Shown piece after piece: positions 3,925 through 31,416 of a stretch of DNA of 42,148 nucleotides. The notes below the pieces were generated by a model. It did not search any database, was not told the origin of the DNA, and saw only the letters and a list, made by a program, of their open reading frames with translations. Position 1 is the first letter of the stretch; every line of letters starts with the position of its first letter. The translations under genes and the position numbers were made by a program. The stretch lies in IMG/VR virus record IMGVR_UViG_3300045988_085437, positions 1 through 42,148 of that record; one strand, given 5' to 3'. This stretch comes from a virus.

Positions 3925-4514
3925 ATAGCTCCCTCCTCGATGAAATAGATTGTAGCGGTACGGATTCCGGCCTGGATGGCGGCCTCGTGGCTCTCCATGC
4001 AGAGGTCGATGTGGGCGCCTTTCACGGCGCTTCCGGTATCGTCCGCCCGGTAATAGTGGAGTTCTCCGTCTCCATAGTCCACCAGGACATCAGAGCCCAA
4101 TGGGATGATGGACGGGTCCACGGCCACGGAGACGCCGGGCGTGGCCCTTCTGCCGCTGGCGGTGATGCCGTCGGACTTGCCGCAGCAGCGGGAGCAGGTG
4201 CAGTAGTGGGTGACTGTTACATCATCCAGGCGGACGGCATGGGACAGCAGCGCCGCCTCGATCAGCTCATTTTCCGCTGCCTCCTGCTCCTCTTCGGTGA
4301 GATAACAGCGGACCAGGGCCGGGGTATCGTCGCCGGGTAGGCTGCCGTCTTCCGCGGTGGGGTCTGGCTTGTGCATAGCGGGCAGTTCTGCCTCTACGGT
4401 CATAATCAGGTAGCTTCCCAACCACGCCAGCAGCAGAAGCAGGAACAGAAGATATGTAATCAGCTGCCGCCTCTGGCTCCGGCGCCGCCGCTCTTCGCGG
4501 GTCAGCTTTTTCAT
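3921..4514 (-). CDS. Membrane-anchored 3D-domain (MltA/RlpA-like double-psi barrel) protein
   Basis: N-terminal TM helix ([20 protein letters not shown]), then [19 protein letters not shown]...[12 protein letters not shown]...[17 protein letters not shown], which is typical of 3D domains. ATG at 4514 makes an ATGA overlap. Confidence 0.7.
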
Positions 4515-5200
4515 AGGATATGCCTCACCGCTTCTTCTCGGGTAATATAGAAATGGATGCCCGTGCTGCACTCGTTCCAGCGGTTTTCGTCAAAATCCGA
4601 AACGGAGACCACAGTTCCGGGAATGTAATGGAAGTTCTCATCTCTATCACTGACGGCGACCTGCTCCAATACATTCCCCTCTAAATCCTGAATCTCCAAA
4701 ACGGTTGCCTTTGAGCAGCGGCACTTCCGGCCTGCTGCGGAACTGCGCACAGCATCTTCGGTAATTTCCAGCTTTACAATGCACTCATGGCCGCTGGTTT
4801 TGACCTTTTTCCAGCCGACAAAAGCGCCGATTTCCGGGCAGGCAATGGGATAAAATAAATTTTTTGCCTTTTCAATGTAGTTGGCCCCGGACAGGTCGGC
4901 CCCGGACAGGTCGGCCCCGGACAGGTTGGCCCCGGGCAGGTTGGCCCAGGACAGGTCGGCCCTGAACAGGTTGGCCCTGGACAGGTCGGCCCCGGACAGG
5001 TTGGCCCCGGGCAGGTTGGCCCTGGACAGGTCGGCCCCGGACAGGTCGGCCCCGGACAGGTTGGCCCTGGACAGGTCGGCCCTGGACAGGTCGGCCCCGG
5101 ACAGGTCGGCCCCGGGCAGGTTGGCCCGTTTTCCGCCATTTTCGCCTCGTAGCCATTTAAGGTGCTTGTCCAAAATATTTTTCAACTCTTGTTTGTCCAT
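4511..5200 (-). CDS. Pentapeptide-repeat protein with a C-terminal DUF5758-like domain
   Basis: About 17 consecutive A(D/N)L(S/P)(G/R) pentapeptides, followed by a globular C-terminus ending ...[18 protein letters not shown]. Confidence 0.8.
4881..5127. repeat. About 16.5 tandem copies of a 15-nt unit (T[CT]GGCCC[CTA]G[GA][AG]CAGG)
   Basis: Read directly from the sequence. It encodes the pentapeptide coils and keeps several frames open on both strands. Confidence 0.95.
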
Positions 5201-8237: not shown

Positions 8238-9050
8238 ATGACGATAGGAGAAAAAATCAGGAGACTTCGAAAAGACTTAGGCATGACCCAAACAGAATTA
8301 GGAGAAAAGCTGGGCGTAAAAACAAATGCAGTCAGCAAATGGGAGTGCGGTCGCGTTGAAGATATTCCGCGTTCCAAAATAAAGGCCATGTCTGTTATTT
8401 TTGGGGTTCCGGCTTCTTATTTGATAGAGGATGACACTAATATTGTGAATGTGGACTTCGGGCATGGAGAAACGCACGCGAAAAAAGCCCCGTCCCAGCG
8501 GGACGAGGCGGACGAAATTGCGGACGTTTTCCGGAAGCTGGACGAGCACGGAAAGGGAGCTGTCCGGGCCATCCTGAATTTTGAGCACGCTGCCGCCGTG
8601 GCGGAGCACCGGCAGGCAGGGGCCAAGAAGCCAAAGGCAAAGGTCAAGCAGCGCAGCGATGGGCTGGGAGATGTGGAGGTGTTTGACCAGCCTTCCGCCG
8701 CAGGCCTGGGGAACTACCTGAGCGATATCGCGTCTCATATTGAGCAGTACCCCGCCAACGTCATCCCGGAGGGGACAGAGTTTGGTGTGCGGATCAGCGG
8801 GAACAGTATGGCTCCCAATATCCCGGATAAGGCAACGGCTTTTGTGCAGTCCAAGATTGCCATAGAGCCGGGGCAGGTCGGGATTTTCCTTTTGAATGGG
8901 GAGTCTTTCTGCAAGAAGCTGGAAGTGGACCGGGAGAAGCAGGAAATCAGGCTGGTTTCCTTCAACCCGGATTACAAGGACCGGATCATCGAAGAGTGCG
9001 ACGATTTCCGGACGCTGGGGCTGGTGCTGGGACACTGGGGAGGGAAATGA
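8238..9050 (+). CDS. CI/LexA-like repressor: XRE HTH plus S24 autopeptidase domain
   Basis: N-terminal IRRLRKDLGMTQTELGEKLGVKTNAVSKWE. The C-terminal part has GNSMAP (catalytic Ser) ... FCKKL (Lys). Confidence 0.9.
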   Translation: MTIGEKIRRLRKDLGMTQTELGEKLGVKTNAVSKWECGRVEDIPRSKIKAMSVIFGVPASYLIEDDTNIVNVDFGHGETHAKKAPSQRDEADEIADVFRKLDEHGKGAVRAILNFEHAAAVAEHRQAGAKKPKAKVKQRSDGLGDVEVFDQPSAAGLGNYLSDIASHIEQYPANVIPEGTEFGVRISGNSMAPNIPDKATAFVQSKIAIEPGQVGIFLLNGESFCKKLEVDREKQEIRLVSFNPDYKDRIIEECDDFRTLGLVLGHWGGK

Positions 9051-9964: not shown

Positions 9965-11053
9965 ATGGCGAAGAAAAGCAAGTATCATCAGAGGCCGGAC
10001 GGGCTCTTTGAGGCGATCCGGACCATCAACGGAAAGCGGGTGGCATTCCGGGGAAAGAGCTGCCGCGAGGTGGACAGAAAAATCCTGGAATACCAGGAGC
10101 AGAAAGAGCGTGGGCGCGACTTCCCAAAGATCGCGGACGAGTGGGAGGTGCAGCACGAAGGGGATATTGGAGAATCCACGCGGCGGGTATACTCCTACGC
10201 CGTGAAGCGTCTGAAAGAGGCGTTCCCCGGACCTGCGAAGGAGATACGGCCCCTGGACATCCAGCGGTATATCTCCGCGTTCGAGAAGCAGGGGAGGAGC
10301 GCCAACAGCGTTTCTATTGAGCTGTGTGTCTGCAAGATGATATTCGCCCATGCGGTGATCTCCGGAGATATTGATATTTCCCCGGCTGCGGAGATCAAGA
10401 AGAGCCGGGGGCTGCCTGTGAAGCACCGGGAGGCGCTGACCGAAGAGCAGGAGGCCGCCGTAAAGGCAGCGGGGCGGGAGAAGAAAGCCCACTGGTGGCT
10501 GTTTCCGTATCTACTGCTTTATACTGGGATGCGGCGGGGAGAAGCCCTGGCGCTGACCTATGCGGACATTGACCGGAAAGCCGGAGTCATCCATGTGACC
10601 AAAAAACTAAACTACGCCTACAGTACCACACCGACACTCGAAAACCACTTGAAAAGCGAGAACGGCAGACGGGACATTCCGTTGCTGCAGCCGCTGGCGG
10701 ACGCGCTGCCCAAAACCAGAGCGGGGCTGATCTTCCCAGGCAGAGACGGAGGATTTATGAAACAAGGGGAGATCGCTAAAAACTGGCGGAGGTACTGCCA
10801 GGATGTGGGGCTGAATGAAATCGTCCAGACCAGCGACGGGAAAATCCATGAGACATTCCCAATCACGCCCCACTGTTTCCGCCACAGCTTCGCAACGATT
10901 TGTTATGAGGCGGGGCTTGACCCCCGGCAGGCTGCGGAGATACTGGGAGACACACCGGAGGTTCTGGAGAGCGTTTACACCCATCTGCGACAAGAGCACA
11001 AGGCAACTGCGGCCCAACTGCTGGGAGCTTACATGGACGCCAGAGAGGGATAG
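9965..11053 (+). CDS. int: Tyrosine recombinase / phage integrase
   Basis: Contains LLLYTGMRRGEAL, HCFRHSFAT and LGDTPEVLESVYTH (the R..HxxR..Y catalytic set), plus an N-terminal SAM-like domain. Confidence 0.95.
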   Translation: MAKKSKYHQRPDGLFEAIRTINGKRVAFRGKSCREVDRKILEYQEQKERGRDFPKIADEWEVQHEGDIGESTRRVYSYAVKRLKEAFPGPAKEIRPLDIQRYISAFEKQGRSANSVSIELCVCKMIFAHAVISGDIDISPAAEIKKSRGLPVKHREALTEEQEAAVKAAGREKKAHWWLFPYLLLYTGMRRGEALALTYADIDRKAGVIHVTKKLNYAYSTTPTLENHLKSENGRRDIPLLQPLADALPKTRAGLIFPGRDGGFMKQGEIAKNWRRYCQDVGLNEIVQTSDGKIHETFPITPHCFRHSFATICYEAGLDPRQAAEILGDTPEVLESVYTHLRQEHKATAAQLLGAYMDAREG

Positions 11054-11381: not shown

Positions 11382-11582
11382 TTATCCTACAATCAGGTCA
11401 TCAGGTGCAATCTCAAGATACCGCTCCAAAAACTCAATATCGGAGCAGGGCGCAAGCTCGTTATGCACGGCCTCGCGGGTGTCGTCATCCATGTACTCAG
11501 CCATAGTGTCAAGGCTGATTTCCTCCAACGCCTCGGCGGGCGTGGTGTAGGTTGCGCCGTTGTTAATGCTGATCTGTTTCAT
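11382..11582 (-). CDS. Hypothetical small acidic protein (66 aa)
   Basis: Clean ORF with an acidic composition. It is the last gene before the terminator. Confidence 0.6.
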   Translation of the reverse strand: MKQISINNGATYTTPAEALEEISLDTMAEYMDDDTREAVHNELAPCSDIEFLERYLEIAPDDLIVG

Positions 11583-13106: not shown

Positions 13107-13174
13107 TAGCCGTTTTGCGTTTTTGGCGGTTTGCATAGTTTTAAGCGTCTGGTGTTATTGAATTTTGACAATGC

Positions 13175-13203
13175 TTGCATTGCTGCGGCATATATGGTAT
13201 AAT
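13175..13203 (+). promoter_or_regulatory. Rightward promoter (TTGCAT-17-TGgTATAAT)
   Basis: Read directly from the sequence, 24 nt upstream of the ATG at 13227. Confidence 0.55.
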
Positions 13204-13226
13204 GCGGCACAACAGGAGGTGATAGG

Positions 13227-13427
13227 ATGGGAGACAGGACAGAGCGCAACCGTAGAACCGCGCCCGCGCGCAACCTGTACAACGCAAAGACCTATGACAA
13301 CATCACATTCCGGGTTCGCCTGGATGGCTCCGACGGGATCAGCAGAGACCAAATCAAGGCCAGAGCCGCAGCCGCCGGAATCAGTGTCAACCAATGGATT
13401 ATTGAGGCAATCAAGGACAAGATTTAG
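13227..13427 (+). CDS. Small ribbon-helix-helix/Arc-like DNA-binding protein candidate
   Basis: Preceded by AGGAGGTGA. The C-terminus ...ISVNQWIIEAIKDKI is typical of CopG/Arc-type proteins. Confidence 0.5.
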   Translation: MGDRTERNRRTAPARNLYNAKTYDNITFRVRLDGSDGISRDQIKARAAAAGISVNQWIIEAIKDKI

Positions 13428-13448
13428 CCAAGAAAGAACAAAGAAACG

Positions 13449-13557
13449 CCCCCTTGTTCCCCCCCTTTCTCTTCCCCCCTTAAACCCCTTATCTCTATCC
13501 CCCCTATAATCCCCCCAAAGAAACAAGAAAGAATATAACCCCCCTTAACAGACCCCC
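13449..13557. repeat. Array of eight C4-C7 tracts (G-tracts on the minus strand)
   Basis: C-runs at 13449, 13459, 13474, 13485, 13499, 13511, 13539 and 13553, separated by A/T/purine-rich spacers. Confidence 0.9.
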
Positions 13558-13559
13558 TT

Positions 13560-13589
13560 GCGCCACTGGCTCCTGCTGGTGGCGCTTTT
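13560..13589 (+). terminator. Rho-independent terminator
   Basis: GCGCCAC-12 nt-GTGGCGC followed by TTTTGCTTTG. Confidence 0.6.
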
Positions 13590-14386
13590 GCTTTGTCTGT
13601 CGTTCTGGCAAAAGCCCAAACAGTGAGGAGGAGCAGATGGGGAGCATAATAGACTAGGAGAAGCAATTTGCAAGGAGATTTTGCACAAGAAAGAGCCATC
13701 CGAAAATGCTTAAAAAAATTGAATTAAATTGATAGAGAAATAACAAAGACGCGATTCGGGAAAATGGGAATTAACTATTTGTTAAACACAAATCTAGTAT
13801 TTGCAATGGTTTTGGGGGTTTCTGTGTAATTTTTGTGTCGGTTGGCCGCCCTGGCTGCGTGTGCATCATGGCTCCGGCCCGCGGCCTGCGTGGGCGTGGC
13901 TGGACTGGGGGCATGCGGCCGGGGCTGTAGATGATGGATAACAAGGAGGGAGGGGTAGCGGAAAAACGGGCGGCCTCGCTGGGAACGGCATAGGTTATAT
14001 TTCCTACATCCCCTCAACTCTCTACAGGTCAGGGGGATACCGGAAAAACGGGTGGGATATGTTCTGAAATCTGAACCTAAAATACTATTATCGGGTACAA
14101 AACAGGGGTGCATAAAATATGCTGAACGATTTGGAAGTGATCTGTGGTAGAGTATAGATAGGCGAAAGCCTACCATCTTCTTTTCTCACCTGCGGCGGGC
14201 AGGGTGTTCCTCCAGCCCTGCCCTGACCGCGGGGCTTATAATGGGGACTAGAAACTGGGGGACCGTACCAGAGTTTCGCAATCGAAGCCGACATGCGGTG
14301 CGGTTGCCCTACCGCTTGTGTTGACTGCTACGTTCCTACGTGGAGAGAGCAGCGGTGGGGCGATTTTGATACAAGGCGGTGAGGAC

Positions 14387-14812
14387 ATGCCGAGAGCGAA
14401 AAAAGCGTCTGAGGAGCCGAAAGCGGAGAAGCGGACGGGAGCGGGGGCGAAATATGAAACTGCGGAGGAACTGCAGGAAAAGCTGGACGCTTACTTTGCA
14501 GAGTGTGCGGAGCGCGGCGATGTCCCCGAGGAATTTTCTCTTGGCGTGTACTTGGGTGTTTCACTCATGACGCTGGATAACTGGTACAATGGCCGCCGCT
14601 GCGAATACCTGCAGGAGACGATCCAGATGGCTTATATGCGGATGTCCGCCGCTGCTGTTCAGATGGCGTACCGGAATCCGAAAGCCCCGATGCCGATCTT
14701 TGCGCTGAAACAGAAGCGGTACGGCGGGTATCAGGACAGGGTGGAAGCCAATGCAGAAGTGAAAGTCAGTGTCCAGATGGGAAAGAACATGGAGGCGAGT
14801 GATTTCGCATGA
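14387..14812 (+). CDS. terS: Terminase small subunit
   Basis: Contains KYETAEELQEKLDAYFAEC...PEEFSLGVYLGVSLMTLDNWY...IFALKQKRYGGYQD, which matches the common terS pattern. The ATG at 14387 was trimmed from track ORF 14318. Confidence 0.65.
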   Translation: MPRAKKASEEPKAEKRTGAGAKYETAEELQEKLDAYFAECAERGDVPEEFSLGVYLGVSLMTLDNWYNGRRCEYLQETIQMAYMRMSAAAVQMAYRNPKAPMPIFALKQKRYGGYQDRVEANAEVKVSVQMGKNMEASDFA

Positions 14813-15527: not shown

Positions 15528-15700
15528 TACATGGATGGTACACCTGCCCCAAATGCCATAAGGGTATCCAGAAGGTGACGGGAAACACGGTCCTGTATGG
15601 GACGCCGGTATACTGCCGCAAGTGCAGGAGGGAATGGTGGCCCACAATCTTCATGGGGCAGGAGATCACCGGCAATTTGCCGGAGTTCAAAATGAAATAA
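15521..15700 (+). CDS. Cysteine-rich KTR-like small zinc-ribbon protein
   Basis: WYTCPKCHKGIQKVTGNTVLYGTPVYCRKCRREW resembles the Cys-rich KTR family. The alternative start is GTG 15509. Confidence 0.5.
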   Translation: MVVHGWYTCPKCHKGIQKVTGNTVLYGTPVYCRKCRREWWPTIFMGQEITGNLPEFKMK

Positions 15701-15757
15701 CAAGCTAGAGCGCAAGACGCCAGAGCTGGGAATGATCCCGGCTTTGGCGTCTTTTTT
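15697..15757 (+). terminator. Copy 1 of a conserved element: box ATAACAAGCTAGAGCG + 16-bp hairpin + U-tract
   Basis: Hairpin 15716-15751 (loop ATGA) followed by TTTTTTGTTTTT. A near-identical element lies at 31351. Confidence 0.65.
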
Positions 15758-15835
15758 GTTTTTCTGAGCAAGACGCCCGAGACCACGGACGCTTGAAATA
15801 CACGCCGCCAGACCAGGCGGGGAAAGAAGGAAGCA

Positions 15836-21167: not shown

Positions 21168-22904
21168 ATGAAGAAGTTTGACCCGACACCTCAGAAGGTG
21201 TCTGCAGAGTATCAGGCTGGGGTCCAGTTTAATCAGGGAATCCAACTGTATGACTGCGTGAATGTCAATGAGAACTTTTTCATCGGCAAGCAGTGGGAGG
21301 GAGTACATAGCAATGGCCTGCCGACGCCTGTTTTCAATTTCCTGAAACGTGTCGTTTTGTTTTCTGTGGCGAATGTGTCTACAGACAACCTAAAGCTCCA
21401 CGCAAAACCGCTGCCCTCCAACGGGAAGCTGACAGGGCAGGATGCGGAGATTTTGACAGACCTCTTGAATGACCAATTCCAGTCCATTTTCGAGTTCAAC
21501 AAAATGGGGGCCTGTATCCGCGAGTTTGCCAGGAACGCCGCGGTGGATGGGGACGGCTGTCTGTACACCTATTGGGACCCTGATGTAGAGACAGGGCAGC
21601 CAAGCAAGGGCGCAATCAAAACGGAAGTTTTGATGAACACACAGGTGCTGTTTGGAAATCCCAACAGCCGGGACGTTCAGAGTCAGCCCTATATCATGAT
21701 TGAACGCCGGATGCTGGTTCCTGAGGCCAAGAAGCGGGCAATCGCAAACGGCGTCAGTGAGGATGATGCGGACGGCATCACTGCTGACAGCAAGCAGAGC
21801 GGGGATAGCCGCATGGACGAGCTGGGCGGCAATAAAGTTACGGTCCTGCTGCGGCTGTGGCGGGATGACGAGAGCGGAACCATCCACGGCTATGAATGCA
21901 CACAGAATCAGGAGATCAAGCCCGAATGGGACCTTGGAATCAAGCTGTATCCCATCTCCTGGATGTCCTGGGACTTTGTACAGGACTGCTACCATGGGCA
22001 GGCCATGATTACAGGTCTCATTCCGAACCAGATTTTCGTAAACAAACTGTTTGCCATGTCCATGATCTCTCTGATGATGCTGGCCTACCCCAAGATCATC
22101 TTCGACAAGACGAAGGTCGCCAAGTGGAGCAACCGAGTGGGCGCGGCCATCGCCGTCAACGGCAGCGTGGAGAATGTGGCAAAGATTATCGACCCGGCTA
22201 CCATCTCTCCCCAGATTTCCCAGTTCATTGACCTTGCAATCTCCTACACGCAGCGGTTTTTGGGCGCTTCCGACGTGGCCCTTGGCGATACACGGCCCGA
22301 CAACACCTCCGCTATCATTGCCCTGCAGCGGGCGGCGGCGACTCCTATGGAGCTGACAAAGCAAACGCTGCTGCAGGCCATTGAAGACCAGGGCAGGATT
22401 TACATGGAGTTTATGGGCGAGTATTACGGGGACCGCTACGTGGAGATTCCTGTTGACCAGACAGCTCTAGGCGGCAACCGTGTGATGTTCACCATGCCGG
22501 GGGCTAATGGGAAGGTTTTGGCTCCGTTCGATTTTTCCAGCCTGAAGGACTACTACTTTACCGTGGACCTGGATGTGGGAGCATCTTCTTACTGGTCCGA
22601 AATCGCCTCTATGCAGACGCTGGACAATTTGCTGATGCAGGGCAAGATTTCCACAGTGGAGTATTTGAAGCGTCTGCCTGCCGGTCAGATCACAGACCGG
22701 GAGACGTTGATTGCGGTATTACAGGCAGACCAGCAGCGGCAGATGGCAATGGCGATGGGCGGCGCAGGCGGCAACTCCGGGAATGGGGGAGGCCCCGCGC
22801 CTGCCGGGCAGGAAAATCCACCGCTGCGGGGCGGCGCCGGATATGGGGCCTTGCAGCGGGTTATCAACCAGACGGGAGAAGTCCCGCAGGAAAGGGGGGC
22901 CTGA
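21168..22904 (+). CDS. Portal protein
   Basis: Supported by size (578 aa), the N-terminal NENFFIGKQWEGV...LPTPVFNFLKRVV portal-like motif and a Gly-rich C-terminal tail. Confidence 0.65.
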   Translation: MKKFDPTPQKVSAEYQAGVQFNQGIQLYDCVNVNENFFIGKQWEGVHSNGLPTPVFNFLKRVVLFSVANVSTDNLKLHAKPLPSNGKLTGQDAEILTDLLNDQFQSIFEFNKMGACIREFARNAAVDGDGCLYTYWDPDVETGQPSKGAIKTEVLMNTQVLFGNPNSRDVQSQPYIMIERRMLVPEAKKRAIANGVSEDDADGITADSKQSGDSRMDELGGNKVTVLLRLWRDDESGTIHGYECTQNQEIKPEWDLGIKLYPISWMSWDFVQDCYHGQAMITGLIPNQIFVNKLFAMSMISLMMLAYPKIIFDKTKVAKWSNRVGAAIAVNGSVENVAKIIDPATISPQISQFIDLAISYTQRFLGASDVALGDTRPDNTSAIIALQRAAATPMELTKQTLLQAIEDQGRIYMEFMGEYYGDRYVEIPVDQTALGGNRVMFTMPGANGKVLAPFDFSSLKDYYFTVDLDVGASSYWSEIASMQTLDNLLMQGKISTVEYLKRLPAGQITDRETLIAVLQADQQRQMAMAMGGAGGNSGNGGGPAPAGQENPPLRGGAGYGALQRVINQTGEVPQERGA

Positions 22905-23222: not shown

Positions 23223-25648
23223 TGGCGCAGACACTTGGCAGCGTGGCGGTGGGGAGCATCGTCAAGATCGACGAGAACGGGAGCCCGGTAAACTACATCG
23301 TGGTGCATATCGGGAACCCGGATGTAAGACTGTATGGTAGTGCCTGTGACGGTGCGTGGTTGCTGCGGCAGGATATTGTGGAGAACGTCCAGTGGAACAG
23401 CACCAATGCAAACACACTTGTAGGCTCCACAATTATGTCTACGATGGCTGGGTATCTGGGAAGGTATGAAAGCCACATCCAGTCTGCCATCAAGACAGTG
23501 AAAATCCCATACCATCCAGGCAATGGAGGGCCTTTATGGGACATCAAAAGTGGAGAAAATGGTTTGGAGTGCAAGCTGTTTCCTCTTTGTGGATATGAGG
23601 TCGGCCTGTCTGGCATAAGTGGAGTTATGCCCATAGACGGCGCGAAGCTGGATTACTTCAAGAGTGGACTTGACACGGAAGCCAATAGCAAGCGGATTGC
23701 TAAACTGAATGGAGCCGCGGCTGCTTGGTGGCTTCGCTCTCCAGTTTCTACGAGCACAGACGGAAAGTTTTACGTCTTGCCCGATGGCAGCTTGGGCAGC
23801 ACCTCGGTAAACCCCTCTTATGGCGCCCTACCTGCCATGATTATGGACCCTACCATCCTGGTTTCGGATGATGGAACCGTTGGCGTTCCGGCGTCCCCCA
23901 CTGCCCTGACTGTGCCGATTCAGGTCATGCAGGGGCGGCAGATCACGGTGAGTTGGTCTGCCGTAGATGGAGTAAGCAGCTACATCCTGGAGCGCAAAGC
24001 GAACACGGACGCCGACTGGGTGCAAGTGTATTCCGGAGCGAACACGAGCTTTGAGGAAACGGTGGGCACCTGGACGAGCGTGCAGTACCGCGTCAAATCT
24101 CTCGCAAACGGGAAATATGGCGATTATACAACGAGCACATCTGTTTCCGTAGTCCCTCTTTCTGCCCTGGTGATTTCCGGGTCTGACGGCAGTTTGGGCA
24201 CTCTCACAAATGATGTACAGTATTCGGTGTCCTCCAGCGGAACTAGTACTTTGACGGTTACAGAAACCATCAACGGCGTCAACACTCGGACATACACGGC
24301 CACCAACGGAGCCGACAACAAGATTTCGGTGGTGGACTTGCCCACGGGAGCGGGCACCATCAAGATCACGGCTTCCACCAACCCCAGCAGCGGCGTGGTG
24401 AGCGTGACGCGGGAGTGGACGTACACCAAGGCGGCCATCACCTTCCCGGATGCCGGGAGCGTGGCGGACCTGACCCAACAAGGCAAGACCATCTGGGCCA
24501 AGACCATTGCGGAGGCGGTGAGAGCGCCCGGCATTTGGGGCGGAAACCTGGGGCTGGCGCTACAAAAGCTGGCCCGGAGTGTACTGTATAACCGGAGCCA
24601 GGCACCAAAGTATTCGGAGGTCACGGTCGATCTGGCAACGGCCAAGGAGGGAAACATCATCAGCCTGCCGGAGAATGGGCAAATGGTGGAGTTCTACGTC
24701 ACCAAGCACGATTACGAGAGCGGGCTGAATGGGGCTGGGCGGACGCTGGTGGTACGGAAAGATCTGTATATTGCACGTCCATGGGACACTGACGGAGTAA
24801 ATGCATATTCTACAAGTGATATCGATATATGGATGGAAAGCACCTACAAACCCATGCTCGATAGTTCTGTTCAGTCTGAAATTGGGACGACTAAAATTTA
24901 TTATACTCCCGGTAACGGAAATGATACAGTAACCACACTTGAAAGAGGAGTGTTCCAACTTTCCGCAACAGAAATGGGCGGGACAGGAGTAAATTTCAAT
25001 GTCGAAGGAACAGTGCTGCCTATTTCTGAAACATTGCAACAGGCATCAAATGGACCACAAATCATTTGGACAAGAACGCCAACGATTGGACGTACAAATA
25101 CGGCCATTTCTCTGAGCAGAAATCCAAATCCTTCTTTTGATAATACCTTTTGCACCGCTACACAGAAATGGTATTACCGCCCTGCCTTTACTCTTCCCTC
25201 TACCTTTGAGTCCACCTACTACGTCGGCAGTGACGGCACCGTCCACGACGAGCAGGAGTACGAGGAGGCGGGCACCCTCACGGACATTTCTGGCGGCGCT
25301 ATCCCCATAGTGAGCATCGAGACCGGGAGCTATGTCGGGACGGGCGCACTTGGTAATGCAAACCCATCATCGCTGACATTTTCTGCGCCTCCCGCCTTTT
25401 TGCTGATTTCAAATGGTGGCGCAAGCCACTTTATCCTAATGGATGTGGTCGCTTTGACAACTTCTTTTACTGCTAGAGCGTATTTGTATGTCGAAACAGA
25501 CGGCGCACTAAAAACTACTTCCACAGTTTACGCAAAAAGAGATGGTAACACAGTATCTTGGTATATAGACGAGGCAAAACCTTACGCACAATGTAACCAG
25601 CAAGGACTCGCATATACCTACTTAGCATTGTTGGGAGGTGCCGCATGA
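23222..25648 (+). CDS. Tail fibre / receptor-binding protein: two DUF6273-like modules plus an FN3 domain
   Basis: AAAWWLRSP...GALPAMIMD and IIWTRTPT...YYRPAFTLP motifs, plus FN3-like ITVSWSAVDGVSSYILERKANTDADWVQVYSG..VQYRVKS. Confidence 0.7.
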   Translation: MAQTLGSVAVGSIVKIDENGSPVNYIVVHIGNPDVRLYGSACDGAWLLRQDIVENVQWNSTNANTLVGSTIMSTMAGYLGRYESHIQSAIKTVKIPYHPGNGGPLWDIKSGENGLECKLFPLCGYEVGLSGISGVMPIDGAKLDYFKSGLDTEANSKRIAKLNGAAAAWWLRSPVSTSTDGKFYVLPDGSLGSTSVNPSYGALPAMIMDPTILVSDDGTVGVPASPTALTVPIQVMQGRQITVSWSAVDGVSSYILERKANTDADWVQVYSGANTSFEETVGTWTSVQYRVKSLANGKYGDYTTSTSVSVVPLSALVISGSDGSLGTLTNDVQYSVSSSGTSTLTVTETINGVNTRTYTATNGADNKISVVDLPTGAGTIKITASTNPSSGVVSVTREWTYTKAAITFPDAGSVADLTQQGKTIWAKTIAEAVRAPGIWGGNLGLALQKLARSVLYNRSQAPKYSEVTVDLATAKEGNIISLPENGQMVEFYVTKHDYESGLNGAGRTLVVRKDLYIARPWDTDGVNAYSTSDIDIWMESTYKPMLDSSVQSEIGTTKIYYTPGNGNDTVTTLERGVFQLSATEMGGTGVNFNVEGTVLPISETLQQASNGPQIIWTRTPTIGRTNTAISLSRNPNPSFDNTFCTATQKWYYRPAFTLPSTFESTYYVGSDGTVHDEQEYEEAGTLTDISGGAIPIVSIETGSYVGTGALGNANPSSLTFSAPPAFLLISNGGASHFILMDVVALTTSFTARAYLYVETDGALKTTSTVYAKRDGNTVSWYIDEAKPYAQCNQQGLAYTYLALLGGAA

Positions 25649-28245: not shown

Positions 28246-28346
28246 GTGAGAAAATTTAAGCATGGAGGACGTAAGGGACAAGGGCTGGTACACGTCGCCG
28301 CCCTCCTTGCGGCCTCCTGATTTCTTAACATAAGGACGTGTTTGAT

Positions 28347-30356: not shown

Positions 30357-30388
30357 CGGCGGGGGCAATAGCCTCCGCCGACTTTTTT
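30357..30388 (+). terminator. Rho-independent terminator
   Basis: CGGCGG(g)GG..CC(t)CCGCCG followed by ACTTTTTT. Confidence 0.55.
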
Positions 30389-31296: not shown

Positions 31297-31330
31297 AAGG
31301 GGGCCGCTTGCATAGCGGCCCCTTTTGTTG
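31297..31330 (+). terminator. Strong rho-independent terminator
   Basis: AAGGGGCCGC-7 nt-GCGGCCCCTT followed by TTGTTG. Confidence 0.75.
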
Positions 31331-31350: not shown

Positions 31351-31416
31351 ATAACAAGCTAGAGCGTTCAGCGCCAGAGTTCGGAGTGATCCGGGCTTTG
31401 GCGCTTATTTTTTTTT
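31351..31416 (+). terminator. Copy 2 of the conserved element: box ATAACAAGCTAGAGCG + 16-bp hairpin + U-tract
   Basis: Hairpin 31370-31405 (loop GTGA) followed by TATTTTTTTTT. It shows compensatory differences relative to copy 1. Confidence 0.65.

Follow-up and report, generated by a model that had tools for sequence, protein, structure and literature searches.

What function resides in the 0.95 kb of DNA at positions 13428-14386 of the phage recorded in IMG/VR as IMGVR_UViG_3300045988_085437? We analyzed the whole record (positions 1 to 42,148; 42,148 nucleotides [nt], here called the window), a phage contig that is circular, with 23 nt repeated at its ends. The gap lies between a small gene for a ribbon-helix-helix (RHH) protein and terS, which encodes the small terminase subunit and is the first late gene. 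An earlier note on this DNA saw no credible gene in the gap and proposed that it could hold a large structured RNA, a packaging site, or a late-control region. We found that the gap is non-coding and that it ends in an RNA hairpin that is absent from Rfam and common to three lineages of gut Clostridia phages. In all probability, the gap is a non-coding late-control leader that carries this conserved hairpin. A fuller statement, in which the region controls the late operon and the hairpin acts in cis as an antiterminator, is our favored explanation, with a probability of roughly 0.4.

The gap has four parts: an insulator, a likely promoter zone, a leader, and the conserved hairpin. Its features, from left to right, are as follows.

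13449 to 13559, plus strand: unstructured tract, rich in C and poor in G, that includes eight C4-C7 runs, in the 3' untranslated region of the RHH gene
13560 to 13595, plus strand: strong intrinsic terminator, an 11-base-pair (bp) stem with 8 GC pairs and a loop of 4, then TTTTGCTTTG
about 13685 to 13835, plus strand: AT-rich putative promoter/operator zone, left boundary of the late-gene-linked module
13841 to 13932, plus strand: long GC-rich hairpin (-56.9 kcal/mol), predicted 5' end of the leader
13959 to 13970 and 14041 to 14052, plus strand: two copies of CGGAAAAACGGG with similar GGGG..UA.CGGAAAAACGGGYGG surroundings, 82 nt apart
14146 to 14187, plus strand: GNRA-capped hairpin GGUA..AGGC-GAAA-GCCU-ACC, then a U-rich tract (z -2.3)
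14190 to 14233, plus strand: two-tier 17-bp hairpin, CUGCGG.CGGGCAGGG / CCCUGCCC.G.CCGCGG (-33.5 kcal/mol)
14233 to 14288, plus strand: tentative 5' hairpin of the conserved element, with closing helix GGCUU/AAGCC and conserved GAAACUG and GCAAUCGAAGC strands
14306 to 14365, plus strand: conserved RNA hairpin of 60 nt that recurs in three phage lineages

Absence of a gene

The gap begins where the RHH gene ends (13427). Just as the earlier note had described, it contains no plus-strand open reading frame (ORF) of at least 60 amino acids (aa); on that strand it is overlapped only by ORF 13165..13509, which reads the RHH gene in another frame, and by terS if the latter is extended in frame to GTG (14318). 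As for the minus strand, the three ORFs that the note had dismissed do lie at exactly 13424..13699, 13775..14176, and 14088..14294. A Pfam search of the gap ORFs gave no match. We followed the 133-aa antisense ORF through 11 distinct close relatives. One allele group has a frameshift in the C-terminal part, the position of the stop varies (products of 133, 134, 150, or 155 aa), and all inspected substitutions alter the amino acid; the ORF is absent in one related contig (L151; contigs are given L numbers here). Indels in the gap among relatives are single bases. Thus, with no conserved frame, no family homology, and no bias toward synonymous change in its ORFs, the gap is non-coding.

A conserved hairpin upstream of terS

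The conserved hairpin ends 10 nt before the Shine-Dalgarno (SD) sequence of terS. Its lower stem has 13 bp and one bulged C, its internal loop is asymmetric (UGUUGACNG opposite AGAGAG, 9 versus 6 nt), and its top is a 5-bp stem, CUACG/CGUGG, closed by the apical loop UUCCUA. Segment 14303-14367 folds to -34.9 kcal/mol on the plus strand (z -6.0), compared to -22 kcal/mol on the minus strand. The 18 distinct sequences that we aligned are paired in 96.6% of cells, versus 38-64% when the partners are slid, and changes on both sides are seen at three pairs (CG/GC, GC/GU/AU, and UA/UG/CG); two U.G pairs are invariant. A G.U pair fills 70 of the 324 cells, which would be mismatches on the opposite strand, and A.C only 2, and the sense-strand fold is 7-13 kcal/mol more stable than the antisense fold; both properties argue for a sense-strand RNA, not a duplex DNA site. 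This is good, although not overwhelming, evidence that the hairpin is conserved as a sense-strand RNA with RNA-type covariation.

The stems vary across lineages, but the loop letters GUUGAC, GGAGA, and UYCCUA change little or not at all. When a covariance model made from the aligned sequences was run on the window, it gave one hit (85.7 bits, 14299-14368), with nothing else above noise. The hairpin is not an intrinsic terminator, because it is followed by GAUUUUGAUA, AAUAUGCC, or AUUCUAUG instead of a U-run. A smaller GCGGT/ACCGC hairpin that the earlier note had placed here (at about 14296-14316) is present in the sequence, but it competes with the long hairpin, which has the phylogenetic support.

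Occurrence in three phage lineages

Relatives were gathered via terS and then via DNA patterns, and were aligned to the gap. Among cultured phages, the sole blastn match was Flavonifractor phage Castelnaud, at window positions 14307-14364. Pattern scans found the same 60-nt hairpin in three lineages: window-like phages, Castelnaud-like phages, and a third, F (L023, L024, L027, L030, and others). All carriers found by these scans come from gut metagenomes, and their flanking sequences are otherwise unrelated between lineages. The hairpin always lies in non-coding DNA, on the strand of the downstream genes and before packaging genes. At least three terS contexts follow it, 21 nt to 1.7 kb away; packaging contexts of the carriers are GP3_package/phrog_606 in the window, phrog_606 in L024 (terS 1.7 kb downstream of the hairpin), and HNH plus terS in Castelnaud. 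Replication modules differ as well, with Rep in the F lineage and primase/helicase in Castelnaud, neither of which was found in the window. Within the DNA examined, no protein near the hairpin is common to all three lineages; regulators, neighbors, and terminases all differ.

The Castelnaud hairpin (22,353-22,409) is located within a stretch of ~590 nt. On one side is the last early gene, which encodes an XRE regulator and has a terminator behind it (22740-22711); on the other is HNH-terS-terL. Three tiny coding sequences annotated over this region are probably spurious. Several Castelnaud-like contigs have a tRNA-Thr gene that starts 5 nt after the hairpin and a tRNA-Ile gene ~450 nt upstream; because tRNAs flank it, the hairpin appears to be cotranscribed with RNA genes, in a transcript that is processed as RNA. 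The region 5' of the hairpin in this lineage (Castelnaud 22244-22744, in L012 and L198; also L018, L025, L111, L116, L120, and L166) is a modular chain of conserved hairpins, 300-600 nt long, with tRNAs interspersed. One of its helices shows a compensatory variant in L120 (CCGCCU/AGGCGG to CCGCAU/AUGCGG), and two neighboring loops, GUCAU and AUGAC, are mutually complementary.

The window and the Castelnaud group also have in common two strands 5' of the conserved hairpin, GAAA(A)CUG and G-CAAUC-K-AAGC. Segment 14233-14288 of the window thus resembles GAAAACUG ... GACAAUCUAAGC of the Castelnaud-lineage phages, where the closing helix is CCCGCU/AGCGGG. Its predicted fold is less striking (z -1.6), and its pairs are broken in the L005 and L120 variants; we tentatively, and weakly, suggest that this second hairpin is part of the conserved element. 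A search of plasmids and conjugative elements gave no similar DNA.

Mosaic structure of the gap

Segments of the gap differ in phylogenetic reach, and no more than about 135 nt is common beyond close relatives. In L011, L083, and L196 the RHH gene, C-rich tract, and terminator are swapped for other cassettes, which also end in terminators, and homology to the window restarts at 13670-13685. From there on, the right-hand 700 nt of the gap always accompanies the late genes in relatives. Homology of L005 begins only at 14231, at the 3' edge of the hairpin 14190-14233. Outside 14231-14365, sharing is confined to relatives that are ~90% identical. Breakpoints between modules fall at hairpins. Nucleotide diversity of the leader is 0.005-0.09 per 100 nt, which is in the same range as that of the adjacent genes.

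These findings support the last of the earlier note's proposals, a late-control region: the gap lies between an insulated upstream unit and the first late gene, its right 700 nt stays with the late genes, and it ends in a hairpin that recurs across lineages.

Insulator and probable promoter zone

Tract 13449-13559 is 46% C and 4.5% G, the maximum of C-over-G skew among 100-nt windows genome-wide, and is weakly folded (-6.7 kcal/mol over 132 nt). It was kept in L003, L004, L007, and L009, and was replaced in L011, L083, and L196. Rho entry sites are typically C-rich, G-poor, unstructured RNA. With at least ~80 nt of such sequence 3' of a stop codon, the tract is a candidate rut-like Rho entry site, and we infer a role for Rho from this composition. 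It is followed by a GC-rich stem-loop (13560-13585) plus the U-run UUUUGCUUUG, the hallmarks of an intrinsic terminator; segment 13555-13600 folds to -21.8 kcal/mol (z -5.1). This terminator is predicted to end the RHH transcript and insulate the late genes.

Sequence from 13685 onward always accompanies the late genes and the upstream units are terminated, so a late promoter is expected in the AT-rich zone 13685-13835. A tentative candidate consists of TTGCAA (13801-13806), an 18-nt spacer, and TGTAAT (13825-13830); among relatives both hexamers are invariant and the spacer is variable. The zone also contains repeated ATTTGCAA and GAATTAA motifs and an 18-mer, CTAGTATTTGCAATGGTT (13794-13811).

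Exact copies of this 18-mer (CTAGTAWTTGCAATGGTT), which includes the palindrome ATTGCAAT, are present in gut phage contigs of two further groups that are unrelated (L044, L045, L062, L073, and ~20 others). In one group the site is 160 nt downstream of an integrase, between direct repeats of ~55 nt; in the other it is near a tRNA cluster and the similarity to the window is ~12 nt longer. The hairpin covariance model finds no hairpin at these loci, and thus no link between 18-mer and hairpin. The proximity to an integrase elsewhere led us to consider the 18-mer as attP; we rejected this because prophage junctions lie at about 11222. Homology of L139 (59.7 kb) and L083 to the window ends there, in an AT-rich stretch after the integrase, and both are uninterrupted through the gap; no prophage/host junction falls within it. 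The attP core is probably at ~11222.

Leader hairpins

The leader is ~550 nt long, GC-rich, and hairpin-rich. Segment 13800-14386 folds to -233 kcal/mol on the plus strand (z -2.8 versus shuffles), compared to z -1.5 on the minus strand. All helices that the earlier note had picked out by eye are present where it placed them: CTCCGGCC (13872-13879) with GGCCGGGG (13917-13924), the GNRA hairpin (14146-14174), the two-tier hairpin, and GCGGT/ACCGC. For the first of these the sequences stand but the pairing does not, since the minimum-energy fold pairs GGCCGGGGC (13917-13925) with GCCCUGGCU (13848-13856).

The latter pairing belongs to the long hairpin 13841-13932 (segment 13838-13935, z -2.2). 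Its interior (13857-13918) exists as two unrelated alleles in relatives, each of which folds to a long hairpin in the same place. Farther downstream, the second CGGAAAAACGGG copy lies just 5' of a weak promoter-like site (14064-14091), and in the L167 group it carries two G-to-A changes, at 14042 and 14050. The GNRA hairpin is perhaps terminator- or attenuator-like, with a stem-loop at 14159-14172 before the U-rich tract, a weak match; it is invariant in all relatives, so that covariation speaks neither for nor against it. The two-tier hairpin folds well (segment 14186-14238, z -4.4), and C14190 is U in some relatives, which retains a G.U pair. Its 11-nt loop (14205-14215) is reverse-complemented in L002, L004, and L016 (tgttcctccag versus ctggaggaata), a change that reads as a small inversion between the arms.

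Genome setting

The following features surround the gap.

8238 to 9050, plus strand: CI-like repressor
9965 to 11053, plus strand: integrase
13037 to 13008 and 13106 to 13078, minus strand: strong, consensus putative promoters of the AcrIC5/DnaJ cassette, divergent from the RHH gene
13227 to 13427, plus strand: RHH gene, 66 aa, HicB/Arc-like (phrog_13890; PF05534 HicB, E = 4.5e-5)
14376 to 14812, plus strand: terS including its SD sequence, ATG at 14387 (phrog_606, E = 4.8e-8; PF16677 GP3_package, E = 1.6e-5)
15714 to 15753, plus strand: strong intrinsic terminator within the late operon, an 18-bp stem then a U-run, 5' of the scaffold, capsid, terL, and portal genes
30357 to 30380, 31297 to 31325, and 31370 to 31405, plus strand: other late-operon terminators

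The terS start codon is preceded by the SD sequence GGTGAGGA (14376-14383). From here the late operon extends 23 kb on the plus strand, with terS first, followed by the scaffold, major capsid, terL, and portal genes. The minus strand carries the early recombination genes (Erf, SSB, RusA, and Ant), which converge on the late operon at its far end, near 37.68 kb; because of this convergence, late transcription is not a simple continuation of early transcription and needs a start in or before the gap. No σ70-like promoter was found in the sequence between the terminator at 15714-15753 and the next gene.

A module that includes terminator sequence is present twice in the late operon (15697-15762 and 31351-31416, plus strand; 80% identical). 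Each copy consists of AUAACAAGCUAGAGCG, a long hairpin, and a U-run, and the stems differ by compensatory changes; it looks like a conserved, possibly regulated, terminator.

Between the integrase and RHH genes is a small minus-strand cassette with an AcrIC5-like gene (11382-11582) and a DnaJ-domain gene. The 66-aa product of the former matches the Pfam anti-CRISPR family AcrIC5 (E = 1.6e-9, above the family cutoff), and its gene is located in a variable cassette between attP and the RHH gene. The RHH gene, whose putative promoter has an extended -10 (TGgTATAAT, 13195-13203) as read from the sequence, could encode an Aca-like regulator of this anti-CRISPR-like gene.

Elsewhere in the window, RAGATH-31 RNA has a full-length match in the late region (28264-28317, plus strand; 80 bits versus a gathering score of 71.8; E = 3e-15), and ~23 tandem copies of a 15-nt unit, GGCCCCGGACAGGTC, lie on the minus strand at 4835-5179 in ORF 4511..5200, where they form a five-residue repeat within the gene.

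Known RNA families and packaging sites

We searched Rfam 15 with the whole window at the gathering threshold and with 13300-14500 at E ≤ 10. The latter gave no matches, and RAGATH-31 was the sole match in the window at the former. At E ≤ 1, the corresponding regions of Castelnaud and L018 gave only tRNAs, plus weak, subthreshold matches to sraA, gut-2, YrlA, and Plastid-ycf2 elsewhere in L018; neither the conserved hairpin element nor the Castelnaud locus had a match. A scan of the window for tRNA and transfer-messenger RNA found none, and we found no repeats that link the gap to the rest of the genome (diversity-generating-retroelement-like template/variable pairs or CRISPR-like arrays). Also weighed and set aside, by their consensus sequences, were T-box, 6S, group II domain V, self-cleaving ribozymes, and mimics of CRISPR repeats; the Rfam search would catch those that are modeled. 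A σ70 promoter that uses TTGAC of the hairpin was rejected, as there is no -10 at a suitable spacing.

For Castelnaud, an experimentally mapped cos end has been reported at 24,325 of a 37,125-bp region (PMC10197239), which is ~1.9 kb from the hairpin if both are in the same coordinate frame; we assume so, as the length of the region equals that of the GenBank record. It is unlikely that the conserved element is a pac or cos site, but possible that the pac site of the window phage lies in or near the gap.

Favored explanation and its rivals

We propose that the rut-like tract and terminator (13449-13595) would stop RHH transcripts and so keep transcription of lysogenic and moron genes out of the late genes. 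A late promoter with operators in the AT-rich zone would start late transcription, which would then cross the leader, with its 5' hairpin (13841-13932) and two terminator-like hairpins (14146-14233). The leader would end in a conserved RNA element (14233-14365), whose well-supported core is hairpin 14306-14365. Acting in cis on the elongating RNA polymerase, this hairpin would bring about processive antitermination, so that late transcripts read through the terminators at 15714-15753 and ~30.4-31.4 kb. The promoter position, the Rho entry site, and the antitermination mechanism are the inferred parts of this scheme.

The arrangement is that of an antitermination RNA, a promoter-proximal leader 5' of terminators in the same operon. 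L024 and L025 have the same layout; strong same-strand terminators lie 3' of the hairpin in the window (15714-15753), in L024 (4149-4185, between the hairpin and terS), and in L025 (9349-9393). With no shared phage protein as its partner, the hairpin points to a conserved host partner such as RNA polymerase. Several observations weigh on the other side. In the F lineage, the hairpin is followed first by a gene for a replication initiator (phrog_3584, E = 2.9e-56), which is not a late gene; the order is hairpin, Rep gene, strong terminator, terS. The Castelnaud late operon has no strong internal terminator by a simple scan. In L009, 14228-14380 is partly replaced and the hairpin is swapped for a shorter one (L009 2925-2985; GCCCCG-CAGUUGCAGGAGA-CGGGGC) whose loop retains GUUGC and GGAGA-like letters; thus, the full hairpin structure is dispensable or replaceable. 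Neither in sequence nor in structure is the hairpin homologous to put, EAR, or any Rfam family, and its covariation comes from about three independent lineages, and therefore from few events. The promoter call is tentative because position 2 of the candidate -10 (TGTAAT) is not the critical A of the consensus. We consider the antitermination step, taken by itself, doubtful. A bolder proposition, which we regard as unlikely, is that the hairpin, with the tentative one 5' of it, represents an undescribed class of cis-acting RNA that reprograms RNA polymerase or another host machine, a cassette among unrelated gut Oscillospiraceae phages that is placed at the head of packaging or late units, sometimes inside tRNA clusters.

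The closest known systems each match in part. Like putL and putR of phage HK022, the hairpin is a short promoter-proximal RNA with conserved internal-loop or bulge letters that heads a terminator-containing phage operon, with no phage protein partner evident; however, put consists of two specific stem-loops (~70 nt) in a coliphage, whereas here one supported and one tentative hairpin are found in Clostridia phages. The cis-acting antiterminator RNA canT of the Gram-positive mobile element Tn916 (340-452 nt) was once hidden under a bogus antisense ORF (PMC11658703). Along with conAn2 of pLS20 and EAR of B. subtilis, it resembles the window leader as a cis-acting, orientation-specific leader RNA of several hundred nt in a Gram-positive element, with orientation specificity predicted here; it also lies behind an insulating terminator, before a long operon with internal terminators, and is overlapped by a spurious antisense ORF (PMC11658703). 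In contrast, only ~60-135 nt are conserved in our case, the Rfam EAR model and plasmids gave no match, and canT was compared by description. Phage lambda nut sites (boxA/boxB) are likewise small conserved leader hairpins upstream of terminators, but we found no N-like protein common to the lineages and the window hairpin is four times the size of boxB.

The main rival, also unlikely in our view, is that the hairpin is an RNA processing or stabilizing site, where the internal loop or its vicinity is cut by a double-strand-specific RNase of the RNase III type or by some other nuclease; the cut would detach the mRNA from the leader or tRNA transcripts upstream of it and leave a protective 5' (or 3') hairpin. 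A helix of ~18 bp broken by an asymmetric internal loop would suit such an enzyme, as would its position directly before the first ribosome-binding site or 5 nt before a tRNA that needs processing, and any gene context is compatible, including the replication gene of the F lineage. T7 RNase III sites and SP82 5' stabilizers are similar, being two-stem hairpins with an asymmetric internal loop that lie between units, before a ribosome-binding site or tRNA. RNase III substrates need little sequence conservation, yet the loop letters of the hairpin are near-invariant across lineages, far beyond the needs of such sites. Less probable still is a protein-binding site: a nut-like antiterminator site, a translational operator, or a kink turn (K-turn) bound by an L7Ae-type protein. 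The 9-versus-6 loop amounts to a 3-nt bulge beside possible tandem pairs (G26.A51 and A27.G50 in alignment numbering), with GA opposite GA, the K-turn layout, in the window-type and F-type hairpins; the Castelnaud subgroup, however, has U at the 2n position, where the second G.A pair needs G. Apical UCCU is complementary to AGGA of the terS SD, but the other lineages show no such complementarity downstream, and the three lineages have no protein near the element in common.

A DNA-level function (a pac or cos signal, a replication origin, or a hairpin-type promoter acting as a cruciform or single strand) is improbable. The region does lie directly upstream of terS, the location of SPP1-type pac sites; in addition, module breakpoints coincide with hairpins, some relatives have the loop of the two-tier hairpin inverted, the conserved hairpin of the F lineage is followed by a rolling-circle-type replication initiator, and TTGAC of the internal loop resembles a -35 box. 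These points are offset by the differing terS contexts and distances, the differing replication modules, the excess of G.U over A.C cells, which is unexpected for a duplex or cruciform site, the distance of the mapped Castelnaud cos end under the assumed coordinate frame (PMC10197239), and the absence of a -10 box at the right distance from TTGAC. A single large, independent RNA of the ROOL, GOLLD, or HEARO kind that fills the 0.95 kb, or just the GC-rich 0.58 kb, as the earlier note had suggested, is in our view very improbable and largely refuted. GOLLD and ROOL are often located among tRNAs. The likeness consists of the prophage setting, the many helices with a plus-strand z of -2.8, and the tRNA neighbors of the homologous Castelnaud-lineage region; it fails on the covariance-model search, which the note had itself proposed and which was negative for the gap and, for the element, in L018 and L012 (E ≤ 1), and on the modular, mostly lineage-specific makeup of the region. 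Finally, a decayed gene, the reading that the earlier note had tied to an intact ORF in related phages, or a neutral spacer is scarcely credible: most close relatives keep the 133-aa antisense ORF open, but it has no family match, is broken in some, and changes only non-synonymously, while the leader is about as diverse as the neighboring genes and the hairpin is kept across lineages.

Implications for late-gene control

Late-gene control in gut Clostridia phages is almost unstudied. If our explanation is correct, an RNA cassette that sits before the packaging genes, whatever the regulator, replication module, or terminase, would provide a handle on it. Because Castelnaud, in Flavonifractor strain YL31, is cultivable and inducible, the hairpin is directly testable. 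Should the hairpin serve only in processing or stability, the region would be an ordinary one, and the main value of our analysis would be a correct annotation, with no gene in the gap and with several probably spurious small coding sequences over the homologous Castelnaud region. If it is an RNA-only antiterminator, it would be a Clostridia-phage addition to a very short list (put, EAR, canT, and conAn2) and may offer a portable read-through part.

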